Source: a virus (taxonomy: Duplodnaviria; Caudoviricetes). From it: DNA of 64,000 nt. The stretch's first letter is position 1; each line of letters opens with the position of its first letter. A model generated the notes under the pieces. It was not told the origin of the DNA. It worked only from the letters and a program-made list of their open reading frames with translations, and did not search any database. The stretch spans positions 32,001 through 96,000 of IMG/VR virus record IMGVR_UViG_3300031867_004305; one strand, given 5' to 3'. Both the position numbers and the translations under genes were made by a program. Of this stretch, positions 30,286 to 52,627 are shown in pieces.

Positions 30286-30444
30286 TTATTCATCCCCATC
30301 AATCCAGCCCATCGCAAACTCATAGGCGATCTCAATGATCGTGTAATCGTTCGCGCGCTCGCACTCATTGAAGAAGTAGATCGTGGCAGGGTGTTCGAAA
30401 CCGAAAGCGCGAATCACGTTGTTTTTCATCTCATTGATCTTCAT
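30286..30444 (-). CDS. 52-aa hypothetical protein
   Basis: AAGGAGG SD, own promoter, terminator hairpin over the stop (MKINEMKNNVIRAFGFEHPATIYFF...). Confidence 0.65.
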   Translation of the reverse strand: MKINEMKNNVIRAFGFEHPATIYFFNECERANDYTIIEIAYEFAMGWIDGDE

Positions 30445-30539
30445 TATGGGTTCCTCCTTGCTTTTGATGTAATTATTTTACCACACGCCAAGACCTTTGT
30501 CAAGAGGTTTTGAAAAAATTTTTTTGTTAAGATTCGGGA

Positions 30540-30710
30540 CTACTCGATGTAGTCCCGAACCTCGTCGTTCGTCAGGTCCAGTTCCTCAGCGATGACTTCC
30601 ACCGCCTCATCGATCCAGAACAACTGTTCCTCAGCGGTCAGGTCCTCCCACGCGCCCATCAGATTCTCGTTGATGTAGGCATCCATCATGGTATTGATCT
30701 TGTTAGTCAT
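30540..30710 (-). CDS. 56-aa highly acidic protein
   Basis: MTNKINTMMDAYINENLMGAWEDLTAEEQLFWIDEAVEVIAEELDLTNDEVRDYIE; SD and promoter. Confidence 0.7.
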   Translation of the reverse strand: MTNKINTMMDAYINENLMGAWEDLTAEEQLFWIDEAVEVIAEELDLTNDEVRDYIE

Positions 30711-30884
30711 TGTGGTGTCCTCCTTGCTTTTGTTGTATTCATTATAACACCTATCCGGCTATTTGTCAATACCTTTTTTGTATTTTTCTTTGTAAAGTTT
30801 GTGTTAAGCCTCCGGCCGGCCCGCGCGAGTTAGTTTATGCTAACTAACTATTATATTAATAAAAAAAGAGGGCTTAAACCCTCT

Positions 30885-31031
30885 TTATGCTACATACCCT
30901 TCGATCATTGCGGCTACTTCATGTGCCCACATATAATCATTGTATGCGCCATAGAACCATTTTTCTCCATCAACAACACGGTAAACGATAAAGCGATAAT
31001 TGGTAGCGTAGGCAGGCATGTTGTTAATCAT
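30885..31031 (-). CDS. 48-aa protein (paralog of 31202-31318)
   Basis: FIVY...FYGAYND..WA.E.AAM shared with the neighbour; own promoter and terminator. Confidence 0.7.
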   Translation of the reverse strand: MINNMPAYATNYRFIVYRVVDGEKWFYGAYNDYMWAHEVAAMIEGYVA

Positions 31032-31201
31032 TTTGATTACCTCTCTCATTTGATGTATATATTATAGCATAAAGTATCGAGAATGTCAATACCCTTTTAA
31101 AAAATTTCTTTGTAAAATCTAAGTTAATGATCTGGCCGGCCAGAAAGTTAGTTATAACTAACTAACTATTAAAATATATAAAAAAGAAGGCTTTTCAGCC
31201 T

Positions 31202-31318
31202 TCAAGCAACTTTTCCGCCCACCATAGCAGCATATTCTTTAGCCCACTGCAGATCATCAAAAGCACCGTAAAAATACTTGATGCCCTTTTCCTCAACGTA
31301 TACGATGAACTTCTTCAT
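31202..31318 (-). CDS. 38-aa protein (paralog of 30885-31031)
   Basis: MKKFIVYVEEKGIKYFYGAFDDLQWAKEYAAMVGGKVA; AAGGAGG SD. Confidence 0.7.
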   Translation of the reverse strand: MKKFIVYVEEKGIKYFYGAFDDLQWAKEYAAMVGGKVA

Positions 31319-31489
31319 TGTTGTTTCCTCCTTGCTTTTGATGTATTTATTATAACATGCCTTTGTTATTTTGTCAATACCTTTTTGTGTTAATTGTGTA
31401 TTAACTTATTTATTTCCAGGATCGTGATTAGTTTAATTAAACTAACCGCTTTTCTGGCCTGCATAATGGGCCAGAACTTATTGATTCAT

Positions 31490-31629
31490 TACTTTATCAT
31501 AGTAAAGTGATTCAAATTTGCCCTACAGGCCAATTTTAGCGGGCCAGGCAACCGGCCGGTTTATTATTCGCGCGAAATCGCCTTAAAACGAAAATTTGAA
31601 TCACACTATCACTTTACCATAATAAAGTG
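31490..31629. repeat. Nested inverted repeat centred on AACCGGCCGGTT
   Basis: GTGATTCAAATTT (31507-31519) and AAATTTGAATCAC (31592-31604) share their dyad centre with the palindrome at 31550-31561. Confidence 0.75.
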
Positions 31630-32029
31630 ATAAATATAATGAACTGGCCGGACCAGTTAGTTTTGACTAACTAACTATTACAAAAATATTACAGCTTTAT
31701 GCGACTTTCTTTTGTGAGGGCGTTTTTAAGGGGTAAAACAACCGGCCGGTTTATTATACACGAAAAAAACGGCTCTACGCGGCGATACGAAAAAAATGCA
31801 CAAAAAGTTAAACCGAAATATTAATTCCAGGTTAAGAAACACTCTACGAAAACGATTTCCGCAGGCCAAATTAACATATCCATAACACTTTTTCTTAATC
31901 TTTTGTGCAATTTTTTTCAGTCGTAGGCCACGGGCATTTTGAACAAAAATTAAATATGAAATACTTTTGTAATAATTAAATAGTTTTGTAATAATCACTG
32001 GCCGGGAGTTTGACTATCTTTGACCTTTG

Positions 32030-32320
32030 ACTTTCATCATAGTAAAGTAGTAGCATAGTAGCATGGTAAAGTAATAGCATAGCATCATAATAAAGTGGCA
32101 CCATAGTAGTATAACATCATAGTAAAGTAGTAGTATGATAACATGATAGCATAGTAAAGTGATAATATAGCATCATAGTAAAGTGGTAGCATGGTAGTAT
32201 GATAAAGTGGTAGCATAGTAAAGTGGCAGTATGGTAAAGTGGCAACATAATAAAGTGATAGCATAGTAGCATAGTAAAGTGGCACCACTTTACCATGATA
32301 AAGTGGTAGTATAGTGATAA
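32030..32320 (+). repeat. Degenerate tandem repeat of CATAGTAAAGTGRYAG-like units
   Basis: About 10 or more TAAAGT-containing units plus CATAG fragments; the unit equals the right half of the CACTTTA-N6-TAAAGTG palindrome. Confidence 0.85.
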
Positions 32321-32660
32321 CAAGCCGGCCAGTTAGTTTAGACTAACTAACAAGAGTTAGTTATAACTAACTATGGGGTCCCCCGTATATTATACCACAT
32401 CAATGTTAACTGCGTATTATCCTCATATTAAAAGTATATGAAGTTTTTTGTTAAGAATAGGTTAAGAAATGATCCGGCCCGCGAGTTAGTTTAAACTAAC
32501 TAATCAACTGGTGGTTGCACAACCTGGAGTAGAATCAACCTGGAGTAGCAAATTCTACCATAGGTTGAATCTCACAACTTTACATGGATTTAATCAAAAA
32601 ATGCTTACCAGTTAACATTGATCTGTTATAATGTATACAGTTGAAAGAGAGGTGCTTGAA

Positions 32661-33128
32661 ATGAAGATGACCCGCGAAATTAACCTGACTTACACCTACG
32701 ACGCCACGCGTAAGGGAGCCAAGTACAGTATCAACGGAGGCGAAAGCTGGCTCAATGGTGGCGAGTTCGCGGAAGCTGTCGCCAAGGCACTCCACGGGCT
32801 GGATCCCCGGAAGGACGCTAACACCCGCTTCGACGAAGGCTCCGACGTGCCCGAGTTCCACGCGAGCGTCAAGAGCTCCAAGGCGAGCCTGACCAACATG
32901 AAGCTGGCTGACAGCTTCGAGGCAAGCCTGACTGCCTACTTCGAGCAGGTGGCAAGCTCCGAGTTCTGGTACGTGACTACCACCGACGAGCTGGCTACCA
33001 TCTACAAGATGAACGCCACGAAGTTCGAGCGGTTCCTGCGGAAGTTCGCTAAGCTCAACGAGCGTGGGGTCATCCGGATCGCGGCCACCAGCTCCAAGAT
33101 GCTGGCATGGTTGGACGCCAACGCCTAA
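32661..33128 (+). CDS. Small PD-(D/E)xK-like protein, related to 28524-28964
   Basis: NGGEFAE...GSDV...SVKSSKASL motif. Confidence 0.5.
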   Translation: MKMTREINLTYTYDATRKGAKYSINGGESWLNGGEFAEAVAKALHGLDPRKDANTRFDEGSDVPEFHASVKSSKASLTNMKLADSFEASLTAYFEQVASSEFWYVTTTDELATIYKMNATKFERFLRKFAKLNERGVIRIAATSSKMLAWLDANA

Positions 33129-33728
33129 CGGCGAGCGTCCAACCACCTGGCTGGGAAATTAACAAAACCTTAACTTGACAAGCTACGCCAGCTGTGATAT
33201 AATGAGTACAACGAAAGGCAAGGAGGAAATGAGAATGAAGATGTGGCTGGTTGACTACCGCGGCACCGACGGTGCCACCTACACCCGCAGGATGTCCTGC
33301 GAGGTCCTGGAGCTCCTGGAGGAGCTTGGGCCCCAATACGGGGTTGAGGTCTTGGGAGCTATTGAGCTTCCTTGACCTCAAGGTATAAAACGAAAGCAAT
33401 TAACCAAATACAAATTTCACTAAAACTTAACTTGACAACTGAATAAATCCATGATATAATAAGTCCATCAAAGGAAAGGAGAAAACAAAATGTTTGAGAT
33501 TTACAAGATCAGCACTGACAGGATTATCCTGTCTGGTCTCTCCCTGCGTGAGGCGCAGGCTCTCCGCCTGACTTGGGCGGATCGGGCGGACTTGATTGTC
33601 CGCCCCATGGCCTAACGGAGAGCATAGGCTCTCCGCTGGCCGGCCCGTTTATTAACAAACTCTTAACTTGACAATTCTCTTTTTAAGTATTATAATATAT
33701 ACAGAAAGTAAGGAAAGAGGTAATCAAA

Positions 33729-34100
33729 ATGTTGTTCGGACGTAAAAAGAGGATGCTTAAGCGTGAACGCGAAATGTATTGGGAGTGTTCTGGTGAATGG
33801 TACTTTCGCGTGGAATACCATGAGGATTTCGCTCCCACGCCTTCTTACATGTACTTTGAAAGTTTGCGAGACGCAGAATATTGGGCAAAGACTGATCGCC
33901 GTGCTTCTTTCATTCTGTGTGTAACTGACAGACAGGGCAACAGGATTATAACTGACTGGACTGGTTATACTGGTGCTGGTACTGTTAATATGTGGACTAA
34001 TATAATGGGGCGTCAAGTTCTTGACTTGCGAAAAGACCATAATGAGTTGTGGGTATCCAACAACAGTCCTCGTGCCAAAGAAGTAAAACAGGGATTGTAA
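33729..34100 (+). CDS. Hypothetical protein
   Basis: Own promoter at 33669, SD, hairpin at the stop. Confidence 0.7.
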   Translation: MLFGRKKRMLKREREMYWECSGEWYFRVEYHEDFAPTPSYMYFESLRDAEYWAKTDRRASFILCVTDRQGNRIITDWTGYTGAGTVNMWTNIMGRQVLDLRKDHNELWVSNNSPRAKEVKQGL

Positions 34101-34212
34101 AATCCCTGTTAATTTACTGGCCGGCCCGCAACTTAACATACTCTTAACACAAAACCTATTGACTTTCCTGGCTCAATGGTGTATACTAGTATCAGAAAGT
34201 GAGGGAAAGAAA

Positions 34213-34389
34213 ATGAAGTTTTTGATGATTCCTTATGTGTTAGTTGCTTGCCTGTTTGGTTTCTTTGGTATTCTCCATGCGAATGATGTTGATGAAAATG
34301 ACTACTTCAAAGTTAATTGGCGTATGATTGTTTTCCTTATTATGATGATGTTGTCACCCATTCCAGCTAAGATCTTTGGTTTGCTTTAA
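34213..34389 (+). CDS. Two-TM micro membrane protein
   Basis: VNW.MI...M..LSP..AKI.G.L shared with 29463-29627. Confidence 0.7.
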   Translation: MKFLMIPYVLVACLFGFFGILHANDVDENDYFKVNWRMIVFLIMMMLSPIPAKIFGLL

Positions 34390-34461
34390 CAAAAACTTAA
34401 CTTGACAACCACCAACCAATCTGCTATAATAAATACAGAAAGAGCGAAGGGAGTAATTCAA

Positions 34462-34713
34462 ATGAAGTTCTACATGGTCATGTGTCACAGAGGTCATTGC
34501 GGAGTGGGTCACAGCACTGAAATCAAGTTCGCAATCGCGGCGAACAATCTGCTCGAAGCGTGTGACAGGGCAAAGCGGATGCCGAGCGTGAAGCATACGC
34601 GAATGGCAATCTACGGCAAGGAAATCACCGAGGAAGAATATAGAGAGTATCGCTCCATTAGTGCTTACGAACGCTTCAATCAGAGCCAGCACAAATCTCA
34701 ACGCAGACGTTAA
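34462..34713 (+). CDS. Small His/Cys-containing basic protein
   Basis: Promoter at 34402, SD; CHRGHCG. Confidence 0.7.
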   Translation: MKFYMVMCHRGHCGVGHSTEIKFAIAANNLLEACDRAKRMPSVKHTRMAIYGKEITEEEYREYRSISAYERFNQSQHKSQRRR

Positions 34714-34836
34714 GTCTGCGTTAACTTTCTGGCCGGGCATCAACTTAACATAGAATTAACTTGACTTCTTACAAAATCTATGCTATACTATATACAACAA
34801 GTGAAGGAAACACTTTAAAACCAGGAAGGTAAGAAA

Positions 34837-35100
34837 ATGAAGAAGATTATTACTATTGCTTTGATTATCACTCTGTGCTTGACTCTCACCGCGTGCCAAA
34901 TTGGCAATCGCAAAATCGGTTTCGACACTACGCAAACTTTCCGTTGGGCTATTGTTCAATTGGGCAACGGTGAACTGATTGAAGGTTCTGTAGATTCTTG
35001 GCGAGACTTTGACAACTCTGACACTATTCAAGTTACTATTAATGGCATTACTTACTTAACTCACTATAGTAATGTCATCCTAACGACCGAGAAGCCTTAA
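34837..35100 (+). CDS. Lipoprotein
   Basis: Signal peptide with lipobox LTAC. Confidence 0.7.
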   Translation: MKKIITIALIITLCLTLTACQIGNRKIGFDTTQTFRWAIVQLGNGELIEGSVDSWRDFDNSDTIQVTINGITYLTHYSNVILTTEKP

Positions 35101-35197
35101 TAGCTTCTCGGTTATATTTATGTTAAATTCGCAGCCGGCCCGTGACTTAACAAACAATTAACTTGACTTCGCATCAAAAATATGCTATTATATATAT

Positions 35198-35370
35198 GTC
35201 GAAAGGAAAGAGGGAGTGATTCCATTGGGTTAGAGTAAGGGGCAACAGACCACTTGGCGGTGGAGAACTGACCTCACGATTACATGAAAACCGTTCCCCA
35301 TTAACCTTGGGCAAGTTAATGATGTTTGAAGCCTACCGCGAGAGACTGATCAACTCTCGCGGTTTGTTAT
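35198..35370 (+). ncRNA. Candidate structured ncRNA (~170 nt)
   Basis: Promoter TTGACT-17-TATTAT at 35163, no credible ORF, several stems, ends in terminator ACCGCGAGAG..CTCTCGCGGT-TTGTTATTT. Confidence 0.55.
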
Positions 35371-35900
35371 TTTAATGTTAATTTTCTGGCCGGCCAGAAA
35401 TGTTAATTCTATGTTAACTATCCTAAAAACACTTGACATTTTATTTTACTTATGATATAATAATTACAGAAAACAAACGAGAGGAGACATCCTAAAATGA
35501 CAAAGCACAATTTCATTTCTACATGGGAAGATCTGAGCGATCAGGAACAAGTTTACATGTGGTGGGAATATAACGCGGCGAACCCTAATGAGGAAATTTC
35601 ATTTTCTGAGTTCGATGAAATGATGGCGGGATTCACTTTCGAGTGAATCCCATTTCATTTTAATTTTTAATTTAATGTTAAGGTACTGGTCGGCCAGCGA
35701 GTTAGTCATAACTAACCCACCTCTTTTTTATTTATTATACCATTCCAATTTCATTTTCGCAAGCACAATAATGTTAATTTCATTTTAAATTTTCACCCGG
35801 CCCGAAATGTTAAATCCAGGTTAAATCATCCTTTAACCTCTTGACTTTTGCCGTCGCCTGCTGTATAATATATACAGAAAGAGGAAAGGAAGTAAACAAA

Positions 35901-36341
35901 ATGAAGCAGACGATCTGGTTTGACATGGACGGCACTATCGCGAACCTCTACGGCGTGGAAAATTGGCTCCCGATGCTGATTGACAGCAATCCCGCTCCCT
36001 ACAAGCTGGCGACTCCGCTGGTCAACATGAACAAGTTGGCGCGGACGCTGAACAAGCTCCAGCGAGCTGGCTACAAGCTCGGTATCATCAGCTGGCTGAG
36101 CAAGTCCAGCACTCCCGAATATGACAAAGCTGTGACCGCCGCGAAGCTATGGTGGCTCCGCAAGCACCTTAACTCGGTAAAGTGGGATGCGGTTAACATC
36201 GTCGCCTATGGTCGCAACAAATGGGACGTGTGCGGTGAAGGAATCCTGTTTGATGACGAAAAACCGAACCGTGACAATTGGGGCGGTGAAGCCTTCCACC
36301 CTGACGAAATGATGAAAGTTCTGTCGAGCCTGACCGCTTGA
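35901..36341 (+). CDS. HAD-superfamily phosphatase (5'(3')-nucleotidase-like)
   Basis: WFDMDGT motif I and ILFDD motif IV. Confidence 0.8.
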   Translation: MKQTIWFDMDGTIANLYGVENWLPMLIDSNPAPYKLATPLVNMNKLARTLNKLQRAGYKLGIISWLSKSSTPEYDKAVTAAKLWWLRKHLNSVKWDAVNIVAYGRNKWDVCGEGILFDDEKPNRDNWGGEAFHPDEMMKVLSSLTA

Positions 36342-36672
36342 CAGAACTTTAACATTCGGCCCAGCCCGCAATTTAACACATAATTAACTTGACTTCATAC
36401 ATAATTTTTGCTATACTATATACAGAAAGAGGGAATGAAAGATGAATGAACTTGATAACATTCGTGTGTGGATTATGCGTCAACCTGCTTCTCCCGCAAT
36501 TCGCACAATGCGACTTCACCTATTCGATCTCTATCGTTATGGCGAAGAATACGAAAAGATTTACCAAATGGTAGAAGAACTAACAAATAATTAACTTGAC
36601 ATCCTCTCCAAACTCTGCTATAATAAGTACATAAGAGAAGGAAAACTCTTCCAAACCAGAAAGGGAAACAAC

Positions 36673-36996
36673 ATGACTAAGATGGAGATTCGCACCAACG
36701 TTAAGACCGCCGTTGCCGAGCAGTTTACTGAGTTTTTCGCCAACGCAATCCAGATCGACGACTTCACCTATGTGATCCCGATGGGAACCGCTGAGGATAA
36801 TGGTCGTCCGCTGTTCGCCAAGGTTGAGATTTCCTGTCCCAACTGGTACGCGACCGCCAAGACTGAGCCCTTCAACATCGACGCCAAGGTGGAGGCGTAT
36901 AACGCCGAGCTTGCCGAGCGTGCGGAGAAGGCCGCGGAAAAGGTACGCAAGGCCGCGGAAAAGGAAGCCAAGCGTAAGGAGAAGGAAGGGGAGTAA
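36673..36996 (+). CDS. Paralog family A protein (Lys/Glu/Ala-rich helical tail)
   Basis: Aligns by eye with 37374, 41763 and 44547; shares the leader motif. Confidence 0.75.
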   Translation: MTKMEIRTNVKTAVAEQFTEFFANAIQIDDFTYVIPMGTAEDNGRPLFAKVEISCPNWYATAKTEPFNIDAKVEAYNAELAERAEKAAEKVRKAAEKEAKRKEKEGE

Positions 36997-37373
36997 CCCC
37001 TTCCTTCTTTTGTTATATCTGTGTTAAAAATCGGGCCGGGCTCCCGCTTAACATTTTCTTAATGAAAGAATGCGGGAAAGAAAATCAAAGCACCAAGAAT
37101 AATAATAGCAGTAGCTATATCAATAGTGATATTACGAGTATTAGTGTACATTTTTACAATGTCTTTCCACGTCAGACGATAGAACCACATCCGCACTTTG
37201 TAACCAGTAGTATTTCGCACATTTCGTTTCATATTGCTTACCTCACTTTCTATAAATAGTATAGCATATTTTATCCTTAAAAGCAATGACTTAAAGTTTT
37301 TTATATTATGACAAAATTATGCCAATCACCCGGCCCGGTTAGTCATAACTAACTGCCAATCAAAAAAGGAGGC

Positions 37374-37697
37374 TTACGCCTCCTCCTTCTTTGCCTTAGC
37401 CTTGGCTACCTTGGTAGCCTTTTCGGCATCCTTGATAGCCTTGGCATCAGCCTTGATCTTCTTCTCAGCTTCCCACTCTTCCGCGACCTCATAGGGGTCG
37501 AACGCCTTAGACACCTTGGTGTCCTTGTACGCCTTGGACTTGACGGTGACTTCCGTCCAAACTTCCTGACCGTCAACAGTCTGGAGGATGGCGAAAGACG
37601 CATCCGCGAACTTGACAGCCTCGTTCTCCATCAGGGCAGGCATGATAGCTTCGATGGTCATCTGACGAGCGGTGGACTTGATCTCATTAGCGTTCAT
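37374..37697 (-). CDS. Paralog family A protein
   Basis: As above; inverted cassette. Confidence 0.75.
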   Translation of the reverse strand: MNANEIKSTARQMTIEAIMPALMENEAVKFADASFAILQTVDGQEVWTEVTVKSKAYKDTKVSKAFDPYEVAEEWEAEKKIKADAKAIKDAEKATKVAKAKAKKEEA

Positions 37698-37948
37698 ATT
37701 ATTCCCTTTCTGGTTTTTGAGCCTTTTCCTTGGCTTCTGTAATTATTATAGCAGATTCAGCGACGCTTGTCAAGTTAATTCTTTATTAACTTTGGCTCTG
37801 TCCCCAGTGCCCAACTCACGCCGTCCTTACCTCTGCCCTTGGAACAATTATATTATAGCAGAATTTCCGCCAGGAGTCAAGCACTTTACAAAAACTTAAC
37901 AATCGCGGGCCGGCCAGAGAGTTAACATAGAAATAACAAAGAAACCGC

Positions 37949-38485
37949 TTACGCGGTTTCTTCATCTTCACATTCTTCAATGTAAGCATAATCTACAATC
38001 ACAGGTTGATGATGTCTAATGCCCCAATTCCAATCATGAAAATCAGTTAAACCAATACTTCTAATCCAACTCAATTCATCATAAGAGAGCATTTGTTCAA
38101 ATGTATATTTGTGACAATTAGGGCCTATTGCCTTGATACGCGGCATAATAGAAAAGATATAACCGCGATAGGTTATAAGCGTAGTTTCCGCGAACAGATA
38201 TTCATAACCAGCATCGCAAGCCATTTTATAAACCGCCGCTTCACGTTCACAGCCACCAATGTCCGCAACACATTCCGCATCATAATCCCACTTAATGACA
38301 TAATCAGAAGTAAGAAGGGCAATACGTGCGGAACCAGCTTCTGAAGAAACACGCCGCGAAGGATGATCGCAAATATAGCGACCTACTGCCTGTTTTACAT
38401 CCCATTCGGAAAACAGGTTATTTTCGATATAGGGAAAAATAGACTTCAAAAACTGGAAAGCACGAGTACGATAATCGGATTTCAT
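37949..38485 (-). CDS. Minimal protein kinase-like protein
   Basis: GSARIA, YVIK, CERE, DFHDWNWG and IVDY match kinase-fold motifs; paralog of 60578. Confidence 0.65.
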   Translation of the reverse strand: MKSDYRTRAFQFLKSIFPYIENNLFSEWDVKQAVGRYICDHPSRRVSSEAGSARIALLTSDYVIKWDYDAECVADIGGCEREAAVYKMACDAGYEYLFAETTLITYRGYIFSIMPRIKAIGPNCHKYTFEQMLSYDELSWIRSIGLTDFHDWNWGIRHHQPVIVDYAYIEECEDEETA

Positions 38486-38679
38486 TTTATTTGCTCCCTT
38501 CGCTTTTCTATATATAGTATATACCAGTATGCTTATAATGTCAAGTTAATTTTATGTTAAGTTTCGGGCCGGGTGATTGTTAATTTCATTTTAAGTTATT
38601 ACCCGGCCCGCCAATGTTAAATCCAGGTTAACTTTCCCATTAAGCACTTGACATTTCATTCAGATTCTGCTATACTATA

Positions 38680-38726
38680 TACAGTTGAGGGCGAGGGAAA
38701 CACTTCCCAAAACCCGAGACAACTTC
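38680..38726 (+). ncRNA. Candidate short ncRNA, module 1
   Basis: Promoter at 38649, no ORF before the next promoter, AGTTG/CAACT closing stem. Confidence 0.4.
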
Positions 38727-38773
38727 ACGAAATCTTAACTTGACAAGGTTGGGAAATCGTGATATAATGAGGA

Positions 38774-38903
38774 TGTTGAGAGGACAAGAGCCAACTTGAA
38801 TAAAAATGGCCACAAACAGACTGCCAAGTAGAGAACGGGATTTATGAGCGTACACCTTTGGTTAAGGCACTGTTATTGTCTCCCGAAATAAAAACTCTCA
38901 ACA
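38774..38903 (+). ncRNA. Candidate structured ncRNA (~130 nt), module 1
   Basis: Promoter at 38740; closing stem TGTTGAGAG/CTCTCAACA; inner GACAA/TTGTC, AACAG/CTGTT and TGCC/GGCA; possible pseudoknot CGGGA/TCCCG. Confidence 0.55.
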
Positions 38904-38993
38904 AACTCTTAACTTGACATTATACCAAATCTGTGGTATAATAAATACATCAAAGGGAAGGAAAACCCACCAAACCAGAAAGGACAAAACACT

Positions 38994-39329
38994 ATGAAGA
39001 AGAACACCATCACCGCTCTGTACAACTACTTCGTGAACTCCGACGACACCATCGACCTGTCCGCTGTGGTTGAGGACATTCGTGCTGAGTATGAGCGTAC
39101 CACCGCGAAGTCTCAGGAGAAGGCTAACGCCTACGATACCGCGAAGCCCATCGTGTTCGGCGTCATGACTGAGCCGATGACGGTCAAGGAGATTTTCGCC
39201 AAGTGCGAGAACGACCTGCCCGATGGCTTCACCTCGCACAAGATCCAATATGCTTTGCTGAACTACTGGTGCGACGAGGTTGCCAAGATTGACAACGGCA
39301 AGGCTCCCTTCACCTACATGGTGAAGTGA
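38994..39329 (+). CDS. Paralog family B protein (helical N-terminus, winged-helix-like C-terminus)
   Basis: MTVKEIF..C...LPDGFTSHKIQY.LL...DEV.K motif shared with 42528 and 43451. Confidence 0.75.
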   Translation: MKKNTITALYNYFVNSDDTIDLSAVVEDIRAEYERTTAKSQEKANAYDTAKPIVFGVMTEPMTVKEIFAKCENDLPDGFTSHKIQYALLNYWCDEVAKIDNGKAPFTYMVK

Positions 39330-39517
39330 GACTAAACCGCCCTTCGGGGCGGTTTTCTTTTACATTTCATTCTGTTAAGTTTTCGTTAATTTTCGGGCCG
39401 GGCGTGGAGTTAACAATCATTTAACTTGCCCGGCCGCGAGTTAACACAATCTTAACTTGACTTTTATTCCTGGCGAATGTATAATAGATACAGAAATTAG
39501 GAAAGGAACTAAACAAA

Positions 39518-40228
39518 ATGATTCTTAACATCACTGACCGTTACATTCTGATTCTGGACGTTGAAACCGCAAACGACACCATCGACGCTATTGTCTATGA
39601 CATTGGCTTCATGTTGGTTGACCTTTACACAAACGCAATCTGTGAGCAGGGTTCTTTCGTAATTCGTGACACTTTCGTTTATGAACGCGAACTCGTAAAG
39701 GTTGCCTACTACGGCGATAAGATTCCTGAATACGTCGCAGACATTCAGCAGGGAAAGCGTCAAATGATTGACTTTTTGACGGCAAGGCGTCATATTCTTA
39801 ACTTGATGGAAAAGTATGATTGCCATACGGTTGGGGCGTACAATTGTAACTTTGACCGCAACGCTCTTAACACAACTCTCCGTTTCTTAACGAAATCTAA
39901 ATATCGCTACTTCTTCCCTTACTCTACTAATTTTGTGTGTATTTGGAATATGGCTTGCGATACCATCTGTCAGACAAGCGAATATAAAACGTTTGCCGAG
40001 ACTAACCGCCATTATTCCAATCATGGCAAAAATTATCGTGCCACCGCAGAGGTTGTTTACTCATTCTTAACAAATAACCCTGACTTCCACGAGGAACACA
40101 AAGGTTACGATGATGTTAAGATTGAAAAGGAAATTATGGAAAAGTGTCTGGAATATGACAAGAACTTTAAGGGAATAAAAAGAAACTGTTGGCAAAAAGT
40201 CAAACGGGGAGCACTCGCTCTCCGTTAA
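39518..40228 (+). CDS. DEDDh 3'-5' exonuclease
   Basis: LDVET, AYNCNFD and EEHKGYDD motifs. Confidence 0.85.
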   Translation: MILNITDRYILILDVETANDTIDAIVYDIGFMLVDLYTNAICEQGSFVIRDTFVYERELVKVAYYGDKIPEYVADIQQGKRQMIDFLTARRHILNLMEKYDCHTVGAYNCNFDRNALNTTLRFLTKSKYRYFFPYSTNFVCIWNMACDTICQTSEYKTFAETNRHYSNHGKNYRATAEVVYSFLTNNPDFHEEHKGYDDVKIEKEIMEKCLEYDKNFKGIKRNCWQKVKRGALALR

Positions 40229-40332
40229 TTTTATGTTAAGTTTCGGGCCGGCCGACCTTTACACAGAATTAACTTGACTTCTCTCTTGAATTTTGATATA
40301 CTATATATAGAAAAAGAAAGGAGATTTCAACT

Positions 40333-40587
40333 ATGACTGTTAAGGAATTGATTAAGGAACTCCAGAAAATGCCCGAAGATGCTGTTGTACTCGGCGATAT
40401 GTATCTTAATCAGTATTGCGTTATTGATACAGTTGAATATGATGACGCGACGAACACCATCTCGTTCTATGGCGAGGATACTTTTGAAGAACCTGACATT
40501 CCCGATGATGTAGACGAGACTAACTACGACCCCTACTGCGGTTGTGATATGTTTGAAATCTGCGGATCAATTGATGAGGAATGGTAA
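40333..40587 (+). CDS. Small acidic protein
   Basis: MTVKELIKEL start, Asp/Glu-rich, own promoter. Confidence 0.7.
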   Translation: MTVKELIKELQKMPEDAVVLGDMYLNQYCVIDTVEYDDATNTISFYGEDTFEEPDIPDDVDETNYDPYCGCDMFEICGSIDEEW

Positions 40588-40691
40588 TTAACCATTCCTT
40601 AACATTGGCCGGCCCACCATTTAACACAATCTTAACTTGACTTCCGCGTGCGAATCGTGTATAATTATATCAGAAAGTGAGGAATGCCATT

Positions 40692-40847
40692 ATGTTAGCG
40701 TTTAGCATTATTATTTTCATTTGGGGACTGTCGGGAATTTGTGGGTTGATAAATTGTAAAAAAGAAAGGATAATTTGGGAACTCTTAATTTTTGGAATTA
40801 TGATTCCTTTTCTACCTGTTTTTGCTAAACTATGTGGTTTAATATAA
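40692..40847 (+). CDS. Two-TM micro membrane protein
   Basis: Manual translation MLAFSIIIFIWGLSGICGLINCKKERIIWELLIFGIMIPFLPVFAKLCGLI. Confidence 0.6.
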   Translation: MLAFSIIIFIWGLSGICGLINCKKERIIWELLIFGIMIPFLPVFAKLCGLI

Positions 40848-40908
40848 ACTTAACTTGACTTTTATTTCCCTATCTGTTATAATAATTCCAGAAAGTGAGG
40901 AAACGCAA

Positions 40909-41049
40909 ATGGAAAAGAAAAATCAGAACCGCGAAACTTGGGTCGGCTATCGCCCCTCCGTCATTCCCGCGAAGAAGAAGAACAAGAAACGCGACCGCAA
41001 AGAAGGCAAGCAGATTTGCCGTAATGCTATGAAAGGAGAAAAGGATTAA
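40909..41049 (+). CDS. 46-aa basic peptide
   Basis: Promoter at 40855, SD; RPSVIPAKKKNKKRDRK. Confidence 0.6.
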   Translation: MEKKNQNRETWVGYRPSVIPAKKKNKKRDRKEGKQICRNAMKGEKD

Positions 41050-41762
41050 TGAGCTTTTGGAAAAAACAAGAATATTGGTATATTATTGATGAAAAATTTT
41101 TCGGATATAACCCTTATTGGTGGGGCGGTTGTGCGGTTGATAATAATTTAAATGGAAATAATAAAGGACTATATAGAACAATATGTCGCGTAGCAAAAAA
41201 TAAAAAACGTAAATCTCGCATAATAGAAAGGAAAATAAAAAATGCGAACCAATCTTGAAATCGCCGCCGAACTTATCGCCGCGGACGTCCGTAATCTCAA
41301 TAATATTGAGGAATATTGTGGCTATCCCGATTTCAATCGGCTTGATGGTATTGAACGCGACAAACTTTCTAAAATGGTTGATGAACTATTAATCATTATC
41401 TATCGGCGGCAAAACCGCCAGCGAATGGAATGGGAGAATAGTTAGTTCTCCCTAACTCCGCCCGGCCCGAGATTTAACAAACTTTTTACTTGACTTTTCC
41501 TGGATTTTGTGTTATAATAATTATAGAAAGTGAAAGGAGAAAGTCAAATGATTATTAACATCACTATTGACACCGATAACAATTTTGTTTGGGCAGTAGA
41601 TGAAAATCAGGAAACCAGCATTGACTATTCCGCGTGTGATCTTTCCGCAATATCCGTAGAAGAAATTATTAACGATTTCTTAACTTGACTTCTCCCGTCG
41701 AATCTGCTATACTATATCCAGAAGGTGAAGGAAAACACCACAAACCAGAAAGGATAACGCCC

Positions 41763-42167
41763 ATGAGTAAGGCTTCTCTTGAAACTGAAATCCGCAACAA
41801 CGTTCTCCAGACCATCATTGACGCCGTGAATCCCATCAGCGACATTCTCCCGATTAGTGCCAGCGAACTCGCTCTCCCCATCGTTGACAGCGAGGGCAAC
41901 GAAAAGTTTGCCGTTATCAAAGTCAGCATTCCTCGCGGTGAGCGTGACGGCAACGGCGGTTACATCCCCTTTGACGGTTACGCCGCCGCCGAGGATTGGA
42001 AACTGGTACTTGCGGATCGTGCCGATAAGGCGGCGAAACGCAAGGAAAAGGCGGAACGTGCCGAAAAGGAAAAGGAAAGGAAACGACAGGCACGCAAGGT
42101 TGTAAAAGACCTTAACACGGTGGGCTTTAAGGCTCTCGTGTCCCAGCCGATTAATGAGGGTGAGTAA
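41763..42167 (+). CDS. Paralog family A protein
   Basis: Alignment by eye; leader motif. Confidence 0.75.
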   Translation: MSKASLETEIRNNVLQTIIDAVNPISDILPISASELALPIVDSEGNEKFAVIKVSIPRGERDGNGGYIPFDGYAAAEDWKLVLADRADKAAKRKEKAERAEKEKERKRQARKVVKDLNTVGFKALVSQPINEGE

Positions 42168-42278
42168 TCACCCTCTTTGTTATTTTTATGTTAATTTTCA
42201 GGCCGGCCCGCTTTGTTAAGATTGTGTTAAATACTCCTAGAACTACTTGACTTTGAGTGGAGATTCTGCTATACTAAT

Positions 42279-42339
42279 ATTGTTGAGAGGGCAAGAAAAC
42301 CTCAAGACAAAAGGGTGAAAGTCCCACCCCTCTCAACAA
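42279..42339 (+). ncRNA. Candidate short ncRNA, module 2
   Basis: Promoter at 42248; 12-bp closing stem TTGTTGAGAGGG/CCCTCTCAACAA. Confidence 0.55.
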
Positions 42340-42527
42340 AATCTTAACTTGACAAACTCCAAGATTTCTGCTATAATGATTACATCAGAGAGGGAAACGA
42401 GAGGTTCAAAGTTCGAGAGGTTCCGAGAGAACTTAACAGAGACTTAACTTGACAAACTACTCCCAATCTGATATAATAAAGACAAGAGAGGGGAAGGAAA
42501 ACCCCACAAACCAGAAAGGGAATCATT

Positions 42528-42923
42528 ATGAAGAACACCATGACTTATGCCGTCGCTCTGTCCACCGCTATCGAGACCATGAAGGACACCAATCCCGAAG
42601 TTGCGGAGCGTCTGACCGCTCTGCGTGCGACCCTTGCGAAGCGTTCCCAGCGTAGCGAGGATTCCAAGGCTAAGGCTTCTGCGAAGCGGAAACAGCAGAA
42701 CGCCGAGAAGCGTGCCGAGATGTGTGCGGAGATCGTGCCGATTCTGCGTGAGGTCATCACCACGGACATGACCGCGAAGGAAATCTTCGCCGTTGCTCAG
42801 GATCGTCTGCCGAAGGACTTCACCGCGAACAAGGTTCAGGCGATTCTCCTGCGTGAGATGAAGGACGAGGTTATCAAGACCGAGACCAAGGGCAAGGCGA
42901 ACACCTATCGCCTTGCGGAGTGA
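42528..42923 (+). CDS. Paralog family B protein
   Basis: TAKEIF...LPKDFTANKVQAILL...DEVIKTETKGKANTY. Confidence 0.75.
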   Translation: MKNTMTYAVALSTAIETMKDTNPEVAERLTALRATLAKRSQRSEDSKAKASAKRKQQNAEKRAEMCAEIVPILREVITTDMTAKEIFAVAQDRLPKDFTANKVQAILLREMKDEVIKTETKGKANTYRLAE

Positions 42924-43086
42924 TAGAAGGGGCTAACGCCCCTTCTTTTTTTTATGGCGAGTTAGCCAGGACTAACTCGGCCGGGTAATGTAAAATGTTT
43001 GTTAAGTAATCGCCCGGCCCGCGATTTAACATAATCTTTACACAGAAAAGTATTGACAACCAGCGGATTTTCTGCTATACTATTAT

Positions 43087-43174
43087 TGTCGGTGGGGGAA
43101 ACGGGAGCGCGCAGGCGCAAGCGCGTTGTGGTAATTAGAAACATGCAACAGTTGATCGGCCACCTAAAGCCGAC
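43087..43174 (+). ncRNA. Candidate GC-rich ncRNA, module 3
   Basis: Promoter at 43053; GTCGG/CCGAC closing stem; internal GCGCGC..GCGCGT hairpin; no ORF. Confidence 0.5.
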
Positions 43175-43230
43175 TTAACAAAATCTTAACTTGACATTAC
43201 AGCCTAAAAGTGCTATAATGAATACATCAA

Positions 43231-43349
43231 GGGGAGCGAACGTGGCATCAGGGGAGCCACCACGGTAAGTCGCAAGACGATTGCGTAGGCCACTTGCAAA
43301 AGAGGGTCGTCCCATGAGGGATGGAGTTCAATTCTCCCGCTCTCCACCA
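43231..43349 (+). ncRNA. tRNA-like RNA with alanine-type acceptor (G3:U70), extra arms and encoded CCA
   Basis: 5' GGGGAGCG pairs with CGCTCTCC, followed by A-CCA; T arm GGAG-TTCAATT-CTCC; promoter TTGACA-17-TATAAT at 43191. Confidence 0.7.
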
Positions 43350-43450
43350 GATTATAACAGAATCTTAACTTGACAAATAGTTGAGAATCTGATATAATAA
43401 ATACATCAAGAGGACAAGGAAAAGTCCTAAAAACCAGAAAGGGATTTACT

Positions 43451-43840
43451 ATGAAGAATACCATCACTCGCGTTGACGCTCTGAACTACGCTATCAATGC
43501 CATCGACCAGTGTACCGAAACCGATGTTGAGGTCGTCGCTATCCTCGAGAAGATTCGCGATCAGATCGCGAAGCCTCGCAAGACCAGCGACACCGCCAAG
43601 GCGAACGCCAAGGCGAAGCGTGCGAACGCTCGTGCGGAACTGATGAAGGATGTTCTGCCCATCCTGCGGGATGCTCTGACCGAGGGCGGTACCGCCAAGG
43701 AAATCTTTGAGCGGTGTGCCGATATGCTCCCCGAAGATTTCACCAGTGCCAAGGTACAGTACATTCTGCTTCACGAACTGGCGGACGAGGTCGTTAAGAC
43801 CGAAGCCAAGGGTAAGGCGAATGTCTACACCCTGCGGTAA
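43451..43840 (+). CDS. Paralog family B protein
   Basis: TAKEIFERC...LPEDFTSAKVQYILL...DEVVKTEAKGKANVY. Confidence 0.75.
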   Translation: MKNTITRVDALNYAINAIDQCTETDVEVVAILEKIRDQIAKPRKTSDTAKANAKAKRANARAELMKDVLPILRDALTEGGTAKEIFERCADMLPEDFTSAKVQYILLHELADEVVKTEAKGKANVYTLR

Positions 43841-43974
43841 AAACAGAGGGCGAAAGCCCTCTGTTAATTTTTTGTTAAAAATCGGGCCGGGCCGTTAGTT
43901 AACCAAATCTTTACTTGACTTCTATCAAAATTGGGAGTATAATAATTATAGAAAAAAGAAAGGGGATACCGATT

Positions 43975-44184
43975 ATGGCTATCAACATTCGTCACACTTA
44001 CAGCACTCACGTTGAGATTACTTTCTATGCTGAAGATGGCATTACCCTGCGTTGTCGTGATTGCGGACAGATGGACGACATCGCCGAGCAGGTTTGTGAA
44101 GTTCTGGTTAAGCACGACTTTGCTTATGCCGATATCTGCTCCGCCGAAACTGGCGAGGTTCTCATGGTGATTGAGCGGACTTAA
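43975..44184 (+). CDS. Hypothetical protein
   Basis: Own promoter at 43915, SD. Confidence 0.65.
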   Translation: MAINIRHTYSTHVEITFYAEDGITLRCRDCGQMDDIAEQVCEVLVKHDFAYADICSAETGEVLMVIERT

Positions 44185-44291
44185 CGTCCGCTTAACATCT
44201 TCGCCCGGCCCACCCATGTTAAGTTTCTGTAAACCTATTGACTTTTGATCGCGATTTATGGTATTATATATATGTCAGGAGGGAACAGGAA

Positions 44292-44471
44292 ATGTTAGAT
44301 AAAGCCATTAAATCAGGCAAAGAACATCGTAAACCTTATTACGATACACGACGTTTTGATTGTACTTGTCGCAATCATGGTTCTTGTGATTGGTGTAAAG
44401 CAAATCGACTTTACCAGATTACCAGAGAAAAAGACAAAGCAAACAACAAACTTAATGAATACTTTACTTGA
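44292..44471 (+). CDS. Small Cys/His-rich basic protein
   Basis: CTCRNHGSCDWC; own promoter at 44238. Confidence 0.65.
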   Translation: MLDKAIKSGKEHRKPYYDTRRFDCTCRNHGSCDWCKANRLYQITREKDKANNKLNEYFT

Positions 44472-44546
44472 CAAATCCCAAATCCTGTGCTATAATATAA
44501 TCAAGAAGTGAAGGAAAACACTTACAAACCAGAAAGGGTCTACACT

Positions 44547-44882
44547 ATGAAGATTTCCAAGGCTATCGTCGATTCCAACATCCGCACCGCTATCTTCAAT
44601 GCTCTGAACGTTGCCAACATCGAAGGATTCCACAAGATCAACGACCGCCAGTATGGTTGTATCGTTGAGGATGTCAACGGCGAACGTCGCTACGCTCGCG
44701 TGGGTGTCATCGTTGCCGAGGTCCGCGAGGACTGTACCGCCGATGAACTGATGGCGTCTGAGATCGCGGACTACAACGCGAAGCAGGAAGCCAAGGCGAA
44801 GCGTGCCGAGGAACGCAAGGCGAAAGCCGAGCGTGACAAGGCGAAGCGTGAAGCCACCAAGAAGGAAAAGGAAGGGGAGTAA
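44547..44882 (+). CDS. Paralog family A protein
   Basis: Ends KEKEGE like 36673; leader motif. Confidence 0.75.
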   Translation: MKISKAIVDSNIRTAIFNALNVANIEGFHKINDRQYGCIVEDVNGERRYARVGVIVAEVREDCTADELMASEIADYNAKQEAKAKRAEERKAKAERDKAKREATKKEKEGE

Positions 44883-45012
44883 TCCCCTTCCTCCCGAAGG
44901 TTAACTTCATGTTAATTTTCGGGCCGGGCCAGAACTTAATCAAATCTTAACTTGACATTTCATTCAAAGCGGAGTATACTATATACAGAAAGAAACGAAA
45001 GGGGACTTCACA

Positions 45013-45246
45013 GTGGGCGTTTACATCGTGACTACCAATTACTTCATGAATGGCTTCTTCGGCATTTACACCACTGTCAAGCGTGCGCGTATTGCGCTTG
45101 AACAGTACTTTGCGGATGACGATGATGTCGTTGCGTTTGAGGACGTAGACAATTACAGCTATACCTTCACCACTCGTAACGGCGCACAGTTCAGCGCGGA
45201 AATTATGTGGGCCGATATTGACGAAGAATTCAAGGAGGATGAATAA
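45013..45246 (+). CDS. Small acidic protein
   Basis: Promoter at 44952, GTG start after SD. Confidence 0.6.
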   Translation: MGVYIVTTNYFMNGFFGIYTTVKRARIALEQYFADDDDVVAFEDVDNYSYTFTTRNGAQFSAEIMWADIDEEFKEDE

Positions 45247-45249
45247 TTT

Positions 45250-45441
45250 ATGAAGTGTCCTAATTGCGGAAATGAAATCTACGCGATCGATACCCTTGAT
45301 AGTGATTGTTGCGGTGACTCTTATTTTGATCGCGTTGAAGGCACTTGCCCCAATTGCGGCAAATCATGGCGATGGATTGAGGTTTTCACCTTTGACCATT
45401 GTGAAAACATAGAAGAAATAAAAGAGGACGACCATCTTTGA
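45250..45441 (+). CDS. Zn-ribbon protein
   Basis: Two CPNCG motifs. Confidence 0.7.
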   Translation: MKCPNCGNEIYAIDTLDSDCCGDSYFDRVEGTCPNCGKSWRWIEVFTFDHCENIEEIKEDDHL

Positions 45442-45504
45442 TGGTCGTTAACTTTATGTTAAAAAAACGGGCCGGGCAACATCTTAACAAAAAATTAAAG
45501 TGGG

Positions 45505-45858
45505 CTATTCGCCCACTTTAACCCATTCCAATTTTATCCAATCATATTCATACAAACCTACTTCATCATGCGGTAATTCATAACCAAAATAAGAATCAAT
45601 CAATTCCATAGCTTCATGCGAAATAATTTTCTTTACACGAATTTTTTCGCATCTGTCGAAAGCATATTTAATAGCATCTAATCCTTGCTCTACTCCGTTT
45701 AAAAAAATCCAGATATACCCGCCATTTTTCCCAAAGAAATCATAAGCATTAAAAAACTCTTCCAACAGATCAAAAGCCTTGCCCTCATATTCTTCGCATT
45801 CTTCAAAGTTATCAAACTCAGTGTCATCATAAGCAACATAAGTAACAACTTCACGCAT
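45505..45858 (-). CDS. Acidic hypothetical protein (inverted cassette)
   Basis: Own minus-strand promoter near 45918, SD. Confidence 0.7.
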   Translation of the reverse strand: MREVVTYVAYDDTEFDNFEECEEYEGKAFDLLEEFFNAYDFFGKNGGYIWIFLNGVEQGLDAIKYAFDRCEKIRVKKIISHEAMELIDSYFGYELPHDEVGLYEYDWIKLEWVKVGE

Positions 45859-51481: not shown

Positions 51482-52627
51482 ATGGAACTTTTGAATTATA
51501 TTAACTCTCATGAAAATTGGGAACAAGAACTTTCTCAGATGCCATATTCACTTAAAATTTCTCACAATGGCCCTTATGTACTTTTTAAGTATCAGCAATT
51601 TCTTTCTGATATGGGTCTACGTATCTGTCAAGAAGCACGTGGTGCTATTTTTCGCAAGGATGAAGAAGGCCATTATGTGCCTATTTCTGTTGCTCTGTGG
51701 AAGTTCTTCAATGCGACCGAACCTTATGCTGATACTGACATACTAGATTGGAATAGTGCCATTATCAGTGAAAAAGTTGATGGTAGTCTTTGCCGCCTAG
51801 CCTACGACCATTACGATAAGATTTGGCTTTTGTCTAGCAATGGTACTATTTTTGCACGCGATGTAGACGCAGGAAATACCAATTTTGAAGAAATCTTTAT
51901 CCACATTTTAGGCGGCAAAAAGAAATACGAAGAACTATTAGAAAAGTTGAATAAAGATTATTGTTATTTCTTTGAAATGGTCTCTCCTTATAATGTAATT
52001 TGTATTCATTATAATGAACCTGCTATTTACTATCTGGGCCGTCGTAATATGATTACTATGAAAGAAGATGACTATGTATTGAAGTTTGATAATATCAAGC
52101 ATCCTAAGACATATAAGTTATTTTCTTTGAGTGATTGTACTCGTGCGGCCGAAGAGTACAAAAACGATTTTGAGGGATTTGTAGTGCGTGATGCAGAATG
52201 GCATCGTGTAAAAATCAAAACTCCTTGGTATATTGCCATCCACAAAATGCGTGGTAATGGCCCGCTGACTGTTCTGCGTGTGGTAGAAATGTTTCAGGCT
52301 GGAACTCTTGATGATTTTGTTGCTTACTATCCCGAGTTTAAGGATTTCACTGATGATGTGGTTCAGCGTATTCGCTACTACATTGAAGTGTGTGATACTG
52401 CGTTCAAGGTAGTTATTAGTGTTGTAGGAGCAATGGGTGAGCGTCGTGATTTTGCTATGTATGCGAACACCTATATGCCTATCGTGCGTTCTTTCCTATA
52501 CGCACGGCTAGATGAAAAGGTGAAGGATGGTAGCGATTACCTGATGAATATGCGTGCACGCACTCTGGCTTCTTACATTATGGCAGAAATGGAAACGACC
52601 AAGATTGGAGCAGTAGAAGATGAATAG
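51482..52627 (+). CDS. RNA ligase (T4 Rnl1-like)
   Basis: EARG, KFFN, EKVDGS (KxDG), FEMVS and EGFVV..KIK motifs. Confidence 0.85.
   Translation: MELLNYINSHENWEQELSQMPYSLKISHNGPYVLFKYQQFLSDMGLRICQEARGAIFRKDEEGHYVPISVALWKFFNATEPYADTDILDWNSAIISEKVDGSLCRLAYDHYDKIWLLSSNGTIFARDVDAGNTNFEEIFIHILGGKKKYEELLEKLNKDYCYFFEMVSPYNVICIHYNEPAIYYLGRRNMITMKEDDYVLKFDNIKHPKTYKLFSLSDCTRAAEEYKNDFEGFVVRDAEWHRVKIKTPWYIAIHKMRGNGPLTVLRVVEMFQAGTLDDFVAYYPEFKDFTDDVVQRIRYYIEVCDTAFKVVISVVGAMGERRDFAMYANTYMPIVRSFLYARLDEKVKDGSDYLMNMRARTLASYIMAEMETTKIGAVEDE

Follow-up and report, generated by a model that had tools for sequence, protein, structure and literature searches.

A promoter-driven family of tRNA-Ala-like RNAs without an anticodon arm in large rumen phages

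The 64,000-nucleotide stretch of DNA analyzed here (hereafter the window) comprises bases 32001-96000 of the 181-kb IMG/VR phage record IMGVR_UViG_3300031867_004305 (G+C content 36.6%; judged complete), which derives from a large rumen phage. On its plus strand, the window carries at positions 43231-43349 a gene for a 119-nt RNA whose first nucleotide, G1, is position 43231 and whose terminal ACCA occupies positions 43346-43349. This RNA belongs to a conserved, structured, and promoter-driven RNA gene family that is built on the acceptor/T frame of tRNA-Ala and that lacks an anticodon arm. A search of the literature for phage RNAs of this kind returned no description, and the mimic family is both real and previously undescribed.

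A preliminary description, made from the sequence alone, had proposed a non-canonical tRNA-Ala-like RNA with an 8/4 acceptor/T stack and four internal arms, and covariation among homologues supports this architecture. Specifically, GGGGAGCG pairs with CGCUCUCC to form an 8-bp acceptor that places G3 opposite U70, whereas a 7/5 division of the same 12-bp branch would require a U-C mismatch. The encoded CCA, the discriminator A, the G3:U70 pair, the TTCAATT T-loop, the 8-bp acceptor, and the 4-bp T stem noted at that stage can all be read in the sequence. Between these ends lie a D-like arm, an extra arm termed X, and two further arms termed P4 and P5 (Table 1). The D-like loop AUCAGGGGA contains a GGG run that could supply the equivalents of G18, G19, and G20, in a numbering made by analogy only. 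Within arm X, the register of P2 is ambiguous, as three registers each fit part of the data.

The minimum free energy of the RNA is -48.2 kcal/mol (z = -2.9 relative to shuffled sequences), and its T arm is the sole T-arm-like hairpin within the 64-kb window. When the 181-kb genome is scanned for the 8/4 frame, there is one non-tRNA match, and none in each of 10 shuffles; the same scan also picks three true tRNAs that fit a 7/5 frame as well. The prediction that standard tRNA finders would overlook this gene holds. ARAGORN makes no call at the site in either its tRNA or its tmRNA mode, and Rfam, including its tRNA and tmRNA models, yields no match at gathering thresholds and none at E<=10 on positions 42900-43500. 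Thus, the RNA neither reaches 29 bits with the tRNA model RF00005 nor forms an ARAGORN cloverleaf. An anticodon arm with a 5-bp stem and a 7-nt loop is absent, and P4 in classes A, B, and E of the family (see below) consists of a 3-4-bp stem and a 12-22-nt loop. The RNA copies in relatives likewise fall below the RF00005 threshold, whereas the true tRNA-Lys genes that share these loci reach 68-75 bits. A class of phage tRNA-like genes thus escapes both Rfam and tRNA finders. By ARAGORN, the phage genome has 19 tRNA genes, all at 134-157 kb and none in the window.

Table 1. Features of the tRNA-Ala-like RNA gene and its immediate surroundings (window coordinates).
Feature	Position	Strand	Basis or remark
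Dedicated sigma-70-type promoter, TTGACA, 17 bp, TG-n-TATAAT	43191..43219	+	12/12 consensus positions, extended -10
Predicted 5' leader (about AUCAA, ~5 nt)	43226..43230	+	Inferred from distance to -10 box
tRNA-Ala-like RNA, class A, 119 nt	43231..43349	+	Sequence read, fold, covariation
Acceptor 5' strand, 8 nt; G3 of G3.U70 at 43233	43231..43238	+	Covariation
D-like arm: 5-bp stem GUGGC/GCCAC (12-16/26-30), 9-nt loop	43242..43260	+	Compensatory changes at 3/5 pairs
Extra arm X (P2/P3): irregular helix, invariant GGUAA...GAUU, GUC-GCAA-GAC GNRA cap	43261..43286	+	P3 covariation
P4: 13-nt loop closed by GGCC/GGUC, with CUUGCAA (tRNA-Ala UGC anticodon-loop sequence)	43288..43308	+	Class comparison
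P5: GUCCC-AUGA-GGGAU hairpin at variable-arm position	43309..43322	+	Fold; class comparison
T arm GGAG-UUCAAUU-CUCC: 4-bp stem, canonical loop UUCAAUU	43323..43337	+	Compensatory changes at 2/4 pairs
Acceptor 3' strand, U70 at 43343; discriminator A 43346; encoded CCA 43347-43349	43338..43349	+	Sequence read, covariation
Next consensus promoter	43370..43398	+	Motif read
'Family B' gene, 129 aa: helical N-terminal part, C-terminal winged helix	43451..43840	+	Own promoter 43370-43398
Terminator of 129-aa gene	43842-43865	+	Sequence

Exact-pattern scans with the RNA ends and the conserved downstream flank identify relatives on about 30 rumen-phage contigs (given below as L numbers) in viral and metagenome collections, two of these contigs being binned into a metagenome-assembled genome (MAG) of the Acutalibacteraceae. 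Five versions of the RNA, ranging from 61 to 158 nt, occupy the same cassette position between near-identical flanks. These are class A (119 nt; the window RNA and about 11 distinct variants), class B (158 nt), class C (61 nt), class D (73 nt), and class E (109-112 nt). Scanning the fetched loci for the frame adds two 72-nt classes that are located elsewhere in the arrays: class F, which is homologous to class D, and class G, which in L020 immediately precedes a true tRNA-Lys(UUU) and is separated from it by 4 nt, an arrangement that resembles a tRNA operon. No match is found in cultured phages, either by blastn with an 801-bp region or by tblastn with the downstream protein, and the RNA model R1 has no match in 150 other genomes of the family to which the MAG belongs.

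Classes A, B, and E share the order acceptor (8 bp), D-like arm, arm X, P4, P5 or a substitute, and T arm (4 bp). In all three, the D-like loop reads AUCRGGGNA, and P4 presents a large loop closed by GGC(C)/G(G)YC. In classes A and E, arm X forms a long, irregular helix that bears the invariant GGUAA...GAUU and ends in a GNRA cap, and in class B it forms a three-way junction. The P5 slot holds a hairpin in classes A and B and only six bases in class E. The GTCCC/GGGAT hairpin of the preliminary description stands within class A, where the loop varies and L029 has a 2-nt insertion, and has no counterpart in class E. One relative, L007, reads CUA in place of the terminal CCA. The central domain is exchangeable between relatives while the frame is kept.

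Covariation was analyzed in 18 distinct RNAs drawn from classes A, B, C, and E. Aligning classes A and E with MAFFT shifts the class E acceptor by one column, and segment parsing and model-based alignment were used instead. All 12 pairs of the 8/4 frame are paired in every one of the 18 RNAs. Pairs 4, 5, and 7 of the acceptor and pairs 1 and 3 of the T stem undergo compensatory changes, while G3.U70, A73, and the T loop are kept throughout. Four acceptor sequences retain the 8/4 frame and G3.U70, namely GGGGAGCG, GGGGCGAG, GGGACGGG, and GGGGUAUG, and the fourth of these, GGGGUAUG, is the acceptor of class G. In the D-like stem (12-16/26-30), changes on both sides occur at three of the five pairs. 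The CGTGG/CCACG arm that had been drawn here gives way to a shifted one, because L002 and L007 break CGUGG/CCACG and keep GUGGC/GCCAC, and only the latter register covaries. The GUC-GCAA-GAC hairpin is real, covaries, and caps a longer irregular arm. Its stem, P3, appears as GUC/GAC, AUC/GAU, and ACC/GGU, and its loop is a GNRA tetraloop in 13 of 14 sequences and GCACA in the other. The check on homologues that the preliminary description had called for therefore finds covariation in the acceptor/T frame, the D-like stem, and P3 alike.

When a covariance model is built on class A, it recovers classes E and B with scores of 52-64 bits, and class C with a weak score. In the model-fitted alignment, which leans towards structure, 97.9% of cells pair, compared to 45-61% with slid partners, and 14 pairs exhibit changes on both sides, compared to 0-1 in slid controls; none of 500 shuffles matches this outcome. 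Helices 1, 2, and 6 are unambiguous also by direct parsing. A coding explanation of the site, which minus-strand open reading frames (ORFs) of 46 and 84 aa overlap, is rejected on account of the 2-nt insertion in L029, the swaps of whole domains, and the paired changes among relatives.

The identity set of bacterial tRNA-Ala comprises A73, G2-C71, G3.U70, G4-C69, and G20 (PMC9976931). The window RNA carries A73, G2-C71, G3.U70, and G4-C69, in addition to the GGG run in the D-like loop, and G3.U70, G2-C71, and A73 are invariant in 18/18 RNAs of classes A, B, C, and E. Elsewhere in these RNAs, G.U pairs are replaced by G-C or A-U. That G3.U70 stays fixed in four different acceptors while its fellow G.U pairs flip argues for selection on this pair. 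In E. coli, 8/4 tRNAs bearing G3:U70 undergo processing and alanylation and are used to insert alanine, and 8/4 tRNAs are also carried by phages and by bovine rumen Clostridia (PMC5389517).

A second resemblance to tRNA-Ala resides in P4. The sequence UUGCA, which corresponds to positions 33-37 of the tRNA-Ala(UGC) anticodon loop, is present in classes A, B, and G and in two of three class E sequences, hence in four of the five classes with G3.U70, and is absent from class C and from classes D and F, which have no G3.U70; the chance of encountering UUGCA is 0.02-0.10 per class. In class A, P4 is followed by GGUC, which resembles GGGUC, the variable loop that ordinary tRNA-Ala genes of the MAG possess. 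Judging from these sequences, P4 is probably a remodeled anticodon arm whose stem was lost. The CTT-GCAA-AAG hairpin proposed earlier survives as an arm, closed by GGCC/GGUC, but its CUU/AAG pairing lacks covariation, and the loop is conserved in sequence. The accompanying claim that CTTGCAA could present UGC but lacks a proper stem is borne out as to the stem, given that no class has a 5-bp stem with a 7-nt loop. The phage's own cloverleaf tRNA-Ala(UGC) is encoded outside the window, at genome positions 137679-137752, and has a non-canonical elbow, with the T loop AGCGUUA instead of UUCRANY and the D loop AAUAGUA, which is devoid of GG. Its anticodon loop CUUGCAA is identical to the P4 7-mer, and its acceptor GGGGUAU is identical to that of class G.

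The perfect promoter of the gene ends 11 nt before G1, and relatives have this promoter in front of the RNA as well. Between the RNA and the next promoter no terminator is present, and read-through would enter the downstream gene. Other genes of the phage may be relevant to tRNA damage. An Rnl1-type RNA ligase like that of T4 (PF09511; window 51482-52627, plus strand) and a P-loop kinase (AAA_33) fused to an HD domain (window 57729-58688, plus strand) sit 8-15 kb downstream of the RNA, and a second RNA ligase (PF09414; genome 145551-146063) is located among the tRNA genes. Together, the ligases and the kinase/HD enzyme look, by sequence, like a T4-like tRNA-repair kit. In relatives, tRNA-Lys(UUU) cassettes occur inside the same arrays. 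Damage that the host inflicts on tRNAs thus seems to be a main pressure on the phage.

We tentatively favor, at somewhat less than even odds, a reading in which the RNA made from this phage gene is matured by RNase P, probably charged with alanine, and unable to decode, and in which it mimics tRNA-Ala(UGC) as a decoy. Transcription would start about 5 nt upstream of G1, and, if established tRNA biology applies, RNase P would cut at G1. The features that RNase P recognizes are a 12-bp helix, an elbow formed by the T and D loops, and an RCCA end. The 3′ end would be trimmed to the encoded CCA, and the RNA would fold into a tRNA-like elbow, be charged with alanine by the host alanyl-tRNA synthetase (AlaRS), and yet be unusable in decoding. 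The last and weakest step is that the RNA, made in bulk early in infection, would serve as a decoy, presenting both a tRNA-Ala acceptor end and a single-stranded UUGCA loop to a host factor directed at tRNA-Ala. This factor would most likely be a tRNA-directed anti-phage nuclease or toxin.

This reading is favored because the conserved parts of the RNA are exactly the recognition surfaces of tRNA-Ala, in an RNA that very probably cannot decode. It is also favored by the early consensus promoter, the hypervariable array, the equipment of the phage against attacks on tRNA, and the tRNA-Lys cassettes of relatives. Moreover, phage tRNAs are known to act as counter-defenses, as does the T5 tRNA-Tyr against retron 78 (bioRxiv 10.1101/2023.03.15.532788). 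A bolder form of the same idea, which we consider rather doubtful, is that these RNAs represent the first counter-defense composed solely of RNA tRNA mimics. They would be alanyl-chargeable baits, devoid of an anticodon stem, for a host anti-phage effector directed against either the acceptor end or the UUGCA anticodon loop of tRNA-Ala. In this form, the exchangeable center and the swapping of cassettes between phages would record an arms race between host and phage, and the phage's own tRNA-Ala(UGC), with its non-canonical elbow, would be the resistant replacement.

Several observations weigh against a decoy function. No defense system that targets tRNA-Ala has been identified in any host, and the host assignment itself is a weak clue, resting solely on two phage-like contigs in a mixed Acutalibacteraceae bin. 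Classes D and F, which lack G3.U70, are found in the same kind of cassette, the fourth acceptor pair of class E is A4-U69 rather than G4-C69, and the 61-nt class C is devoid of the UUGCA loop. In addition, acceptor pairs 1, 2, 6, and 8 are invariant as well, such that shared descent from tRNA-Ala explains part of the conservation. Finally, without a terminator of its own, the RNA could merely be a portion of a longer transcript.

This last point bears on an alternative that we regard as unlikely, in which the minihelix is a processing mark or a scaffold that serves cutting by RNase P and a 3′ nuclease, or that protects and presents a functional central domain such as an aptamer or a protein-binding element, with alanylation being irrelevant. 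Cassettes are stacked without terminators between them, so that long read-through transcripts need cutting, adjoining cassettes also encode RNAs closed by 5′/3′ helices, and the frame is kept while relatives swap the central domain. However, the RNA has its own consensus promoter and is followed by another, which makes punctuation unnecessary, and class C keeps the frame with almost no cargo. Furthermore, G3.U70 is kept in the four acceptor sequences although RNase P does not require it, and the P4 loop is conserved over classes A, B, and E.

A further alternative is that the RNA is a sponge for the translation apparatus (AlaRS, EF-Tu, SmpB, or a T-box leader), leading to shut-off or rewiring of the host, or that it donates alanine to a non-ribosomal acceptor; we give this pair of possibilities only about one chance in five. 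The alanine identity set, complete if the GGG run supplies G20, the 12-bp acceptor/T helix, and the very strong early promoter all fit such a role. Alanine minihelices expressed in E. coli reportedly compete for AlaRS and inhibit growth, a finding attributed to Hipps and Schimmel in 1995. Nevertheless, the phage itself depends on AlaRS and EF-Tu, and a T-box would require a properly presented anticodon. Among the genes sought in the phage genome, those for AlaRS, a CCA-adding enzyme, SmpB, a FemAB-type transferase, and RtcB were not found, and hence none of the first four points to a sponge or donor. Such a role also leaves the exchangeable central domain and the conserved UUGCA loop unexplained.

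It is very improbable that the gene is a decaying pseudo-tRNA-Ala with no function of its own. Its acceptor end, the GGG of the D loop, UUGCA, and the GGUC after the loop do look derived from tRNA-Ala(UGC), and tRNA finders reject it; however, every helix is maintained by compensatory changes, the promoter is dedicated and perfect, the frame is kept in at least four diverged classes over about 30 contigs, and the inserted arms are themselves structured and bear GNRA caps. Least credible of all is a working decoding tRNA of unusual, allo-tRNA-like shape or a miniature tmRNA: although 8/4 tRNAs function in translation (PMC5389517), CUUGCAA is the anticodon loop of tRNA-Ala(UGC), and the ends resemble the tRNA-like domain of tmRNA, decoding is very unlikely because no class closes a 7-nt loop around UGC with a 5-bp stem, the loop having 12-22 nt on a 3-4-bp stem, UGC is changed to UAC in L029, and U33 is lost in L031, while the phage already has a cloverleaf tRNA-Ala(UGC), and tmRNA is contradicted by the lack of a tag reading frame, resume codon, or pseudoknots, of an ARAGORN or Rfam tmRNA call, and of an SmpB gene in the phage.

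Comparisons with known systems help to place the family. Like the phage RNA, allo-tRNAs and other 8/4 tRNAs have a 12-bp branch split 8/4, and some with G3:U70 are alanylated in E. coli (Mukai et al., 2017; PMC5389517). Allo-tRNAs nevertheless decode, having an anticodon arm of normal form along with a long variable arm (PMC5389517), whereas the phage RNA has no anticodon stem and has instead an extra arm between the D-like arm and P4 and an exchangeable center. Both the tRNA-like domain of tmRNA and the phage RNA carry G3.U70, A73, and CCA at their alanine end, possess a canonical T loop, lack an anticodon, and put a tRNA shape to a use other than decoding, which for the phage RNA is a prediction. 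The tmRNA domain differs in its 7/5 branch, its lack of a D stem, its pseudoknots, its tag reading frame, and its partner SmpB, whereas the phage RNA is 8/4, has a 5-bp D-like stem, and carries no message part.

The species 1 RNA of T4 (rnaC, 139 nt) is likewise a small stable phage RNA, with the T arm CCGGG-UUCGAAU-CCCGG, paired ends, and a long structured insert. Its acceptor is imperfect, its annotated span contains neither G3.U70 nor an encoded CCA, and it resides within a tRNA operon, whereas the phage mimic is under its own early promoter. The two folds differ, and the RNA model R1 gives no match on the T4 locus (L045), such that homology to rnaC is not indicated. The T4 RNA is annotated only as a small stable RNA, and we know of no function for it. 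In YrlA, the Ro-binding helix is formed by the termini of the RNA. A YrlA-like interpretation of the window RNA is excluded because its termini form the acceptor stem ending in ACCA, and there is no Rfam match of any kind, Y RNA and YrlA included, at this site.

The alanine minihelix, an acceptor/T helix with G3.U70 (Francklyn and Schimmel, 1989, cited in PMC9976931), is a laboratory construct. Class C, with its 12-bp helix, G3.U70, ACCA, and one small hairpin in 61 nt, comes close to a natural version, although the phage RNAs are natural genes whose larger classes add D-like, X, P4, and P5 arms. Counter-defense tRNAs of phages are also tRNA-shaped RNAs of large lytic phages, and tRNA-Lys(UUU) is found in the arrays of relatives. 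Those tRNAs are functional and replace cleaved host tRNAs, whereas a non-decoding mimic could act only as a bait or competitor.

The surroundings of the gene, at window 41-46 kb, form an array of consensus promoters, with paralogous genes for proteins of about 130 aa and several short non-coding units driven by such promoters, and have the appearance of an accessory early region in which cassettes are exchanged. Proteins of about 110-130 aa that are paralogous to one another follow non-coding RNA cassettes at window 43451-43840, 42528-42923, 44547-44882, and 38994-39329, and each comprises a helical part at the N terminus, a linker rich in Lys and Ala, and a winged helix at the C terminus (AF2 pLDDT 83). 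These family B proteins match no Pfam or PHROG family, the winged-helix model is only weakly PadR/Fox-like, and no link between the family B protein and the 119-nt RNA could be shown. Three further promoter-driven units without ORFs lie at window 42276-42340, 42378-42440, and 43089-43176, two of which are closed by long 5′/3′ helices (GUUGAGAGGG/CCCCUCUCAAC; GUCGGU/GCCGAC). The unit at 42386-42436 consists of successive repeats that contain GAGAG and does not fold stably, and that at 43089-43176 has a homologue in L013 and is replaced by other RNAs in L002, L007, and L008. Elsewhere in the phage genome, a single ORF of 5158 aa spans genome positions 30133-45609 (window 2-13609, minus strand).

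The arrays of relatives harbor additional RNAs. Classes D and F constitute a second tRNA-like family of about 72 nt (L010:3829-3901; L003:978-1049, minus strand; L018:2229-2300), with a 7-bp acceptor that has a bulged U in class D, a 5-bp T stem, A73-CCA, one covarying hairpin, and neither a D arm nor G3.U70. In L003 and L018, an RNA of this type lies one cassette upstream of a class A or B RNA. At L020:6950-7400, one promoter precedes three RNAs in a row, namely an RNA of about 100 nt, class G, and the true tRNA-Lys(UUU). The first of these has the T-loop-like hairpin AGGG-UUCAAGU-CCCU, and the RNA of the next L020 cassette also has such a hairpin, UGG-UUCAAAU-CCA. Group I intron matches are present at L003:12328-12545 and 12842-12934 (Rfam RF00028; 90 and 58 bits). 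The metagenome contigs L004/L040, L036, and L041 start or stop inside the RNA or its promoter, which fits assembly breaks at a polymorphic cassette. The 2.3-Mb Acutalibacteraceae MAG (JAZQHA01; G001) holds two cassette contigs (L043 and L044), with class A and class C RNAs, and yields 135 matches to the tRNA model, indicating that the bin mixes bacterial and large-phage DNA.

To our knowledge, there are few tRNA-shaped RNAs that do not decode, namely tmRNA, viral 3′ tRNA-like structures, mascRNA, and the T4 species 1 and 2 RNAs. Such RNAs have mostly uncovered new biology. The phage family provides a set of natural, covarying mimics from 61 to 158 nt that combine a putatively alanine-accepting minihelix, a predicted elbow, and a loop with the tRNA-Ala anticodon sequence. 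These RNAs are ready-made natural variants for studies of AlaRS, RNase P, EF-Tu, and tRNA-targeting toxins. If they are indeed charged and act as baits, then they would constitute a natural counterpart to the alanine minihelix, and the counter-defenses that phages base on tRNA would widen from replacement tRNAs to pure decoys.
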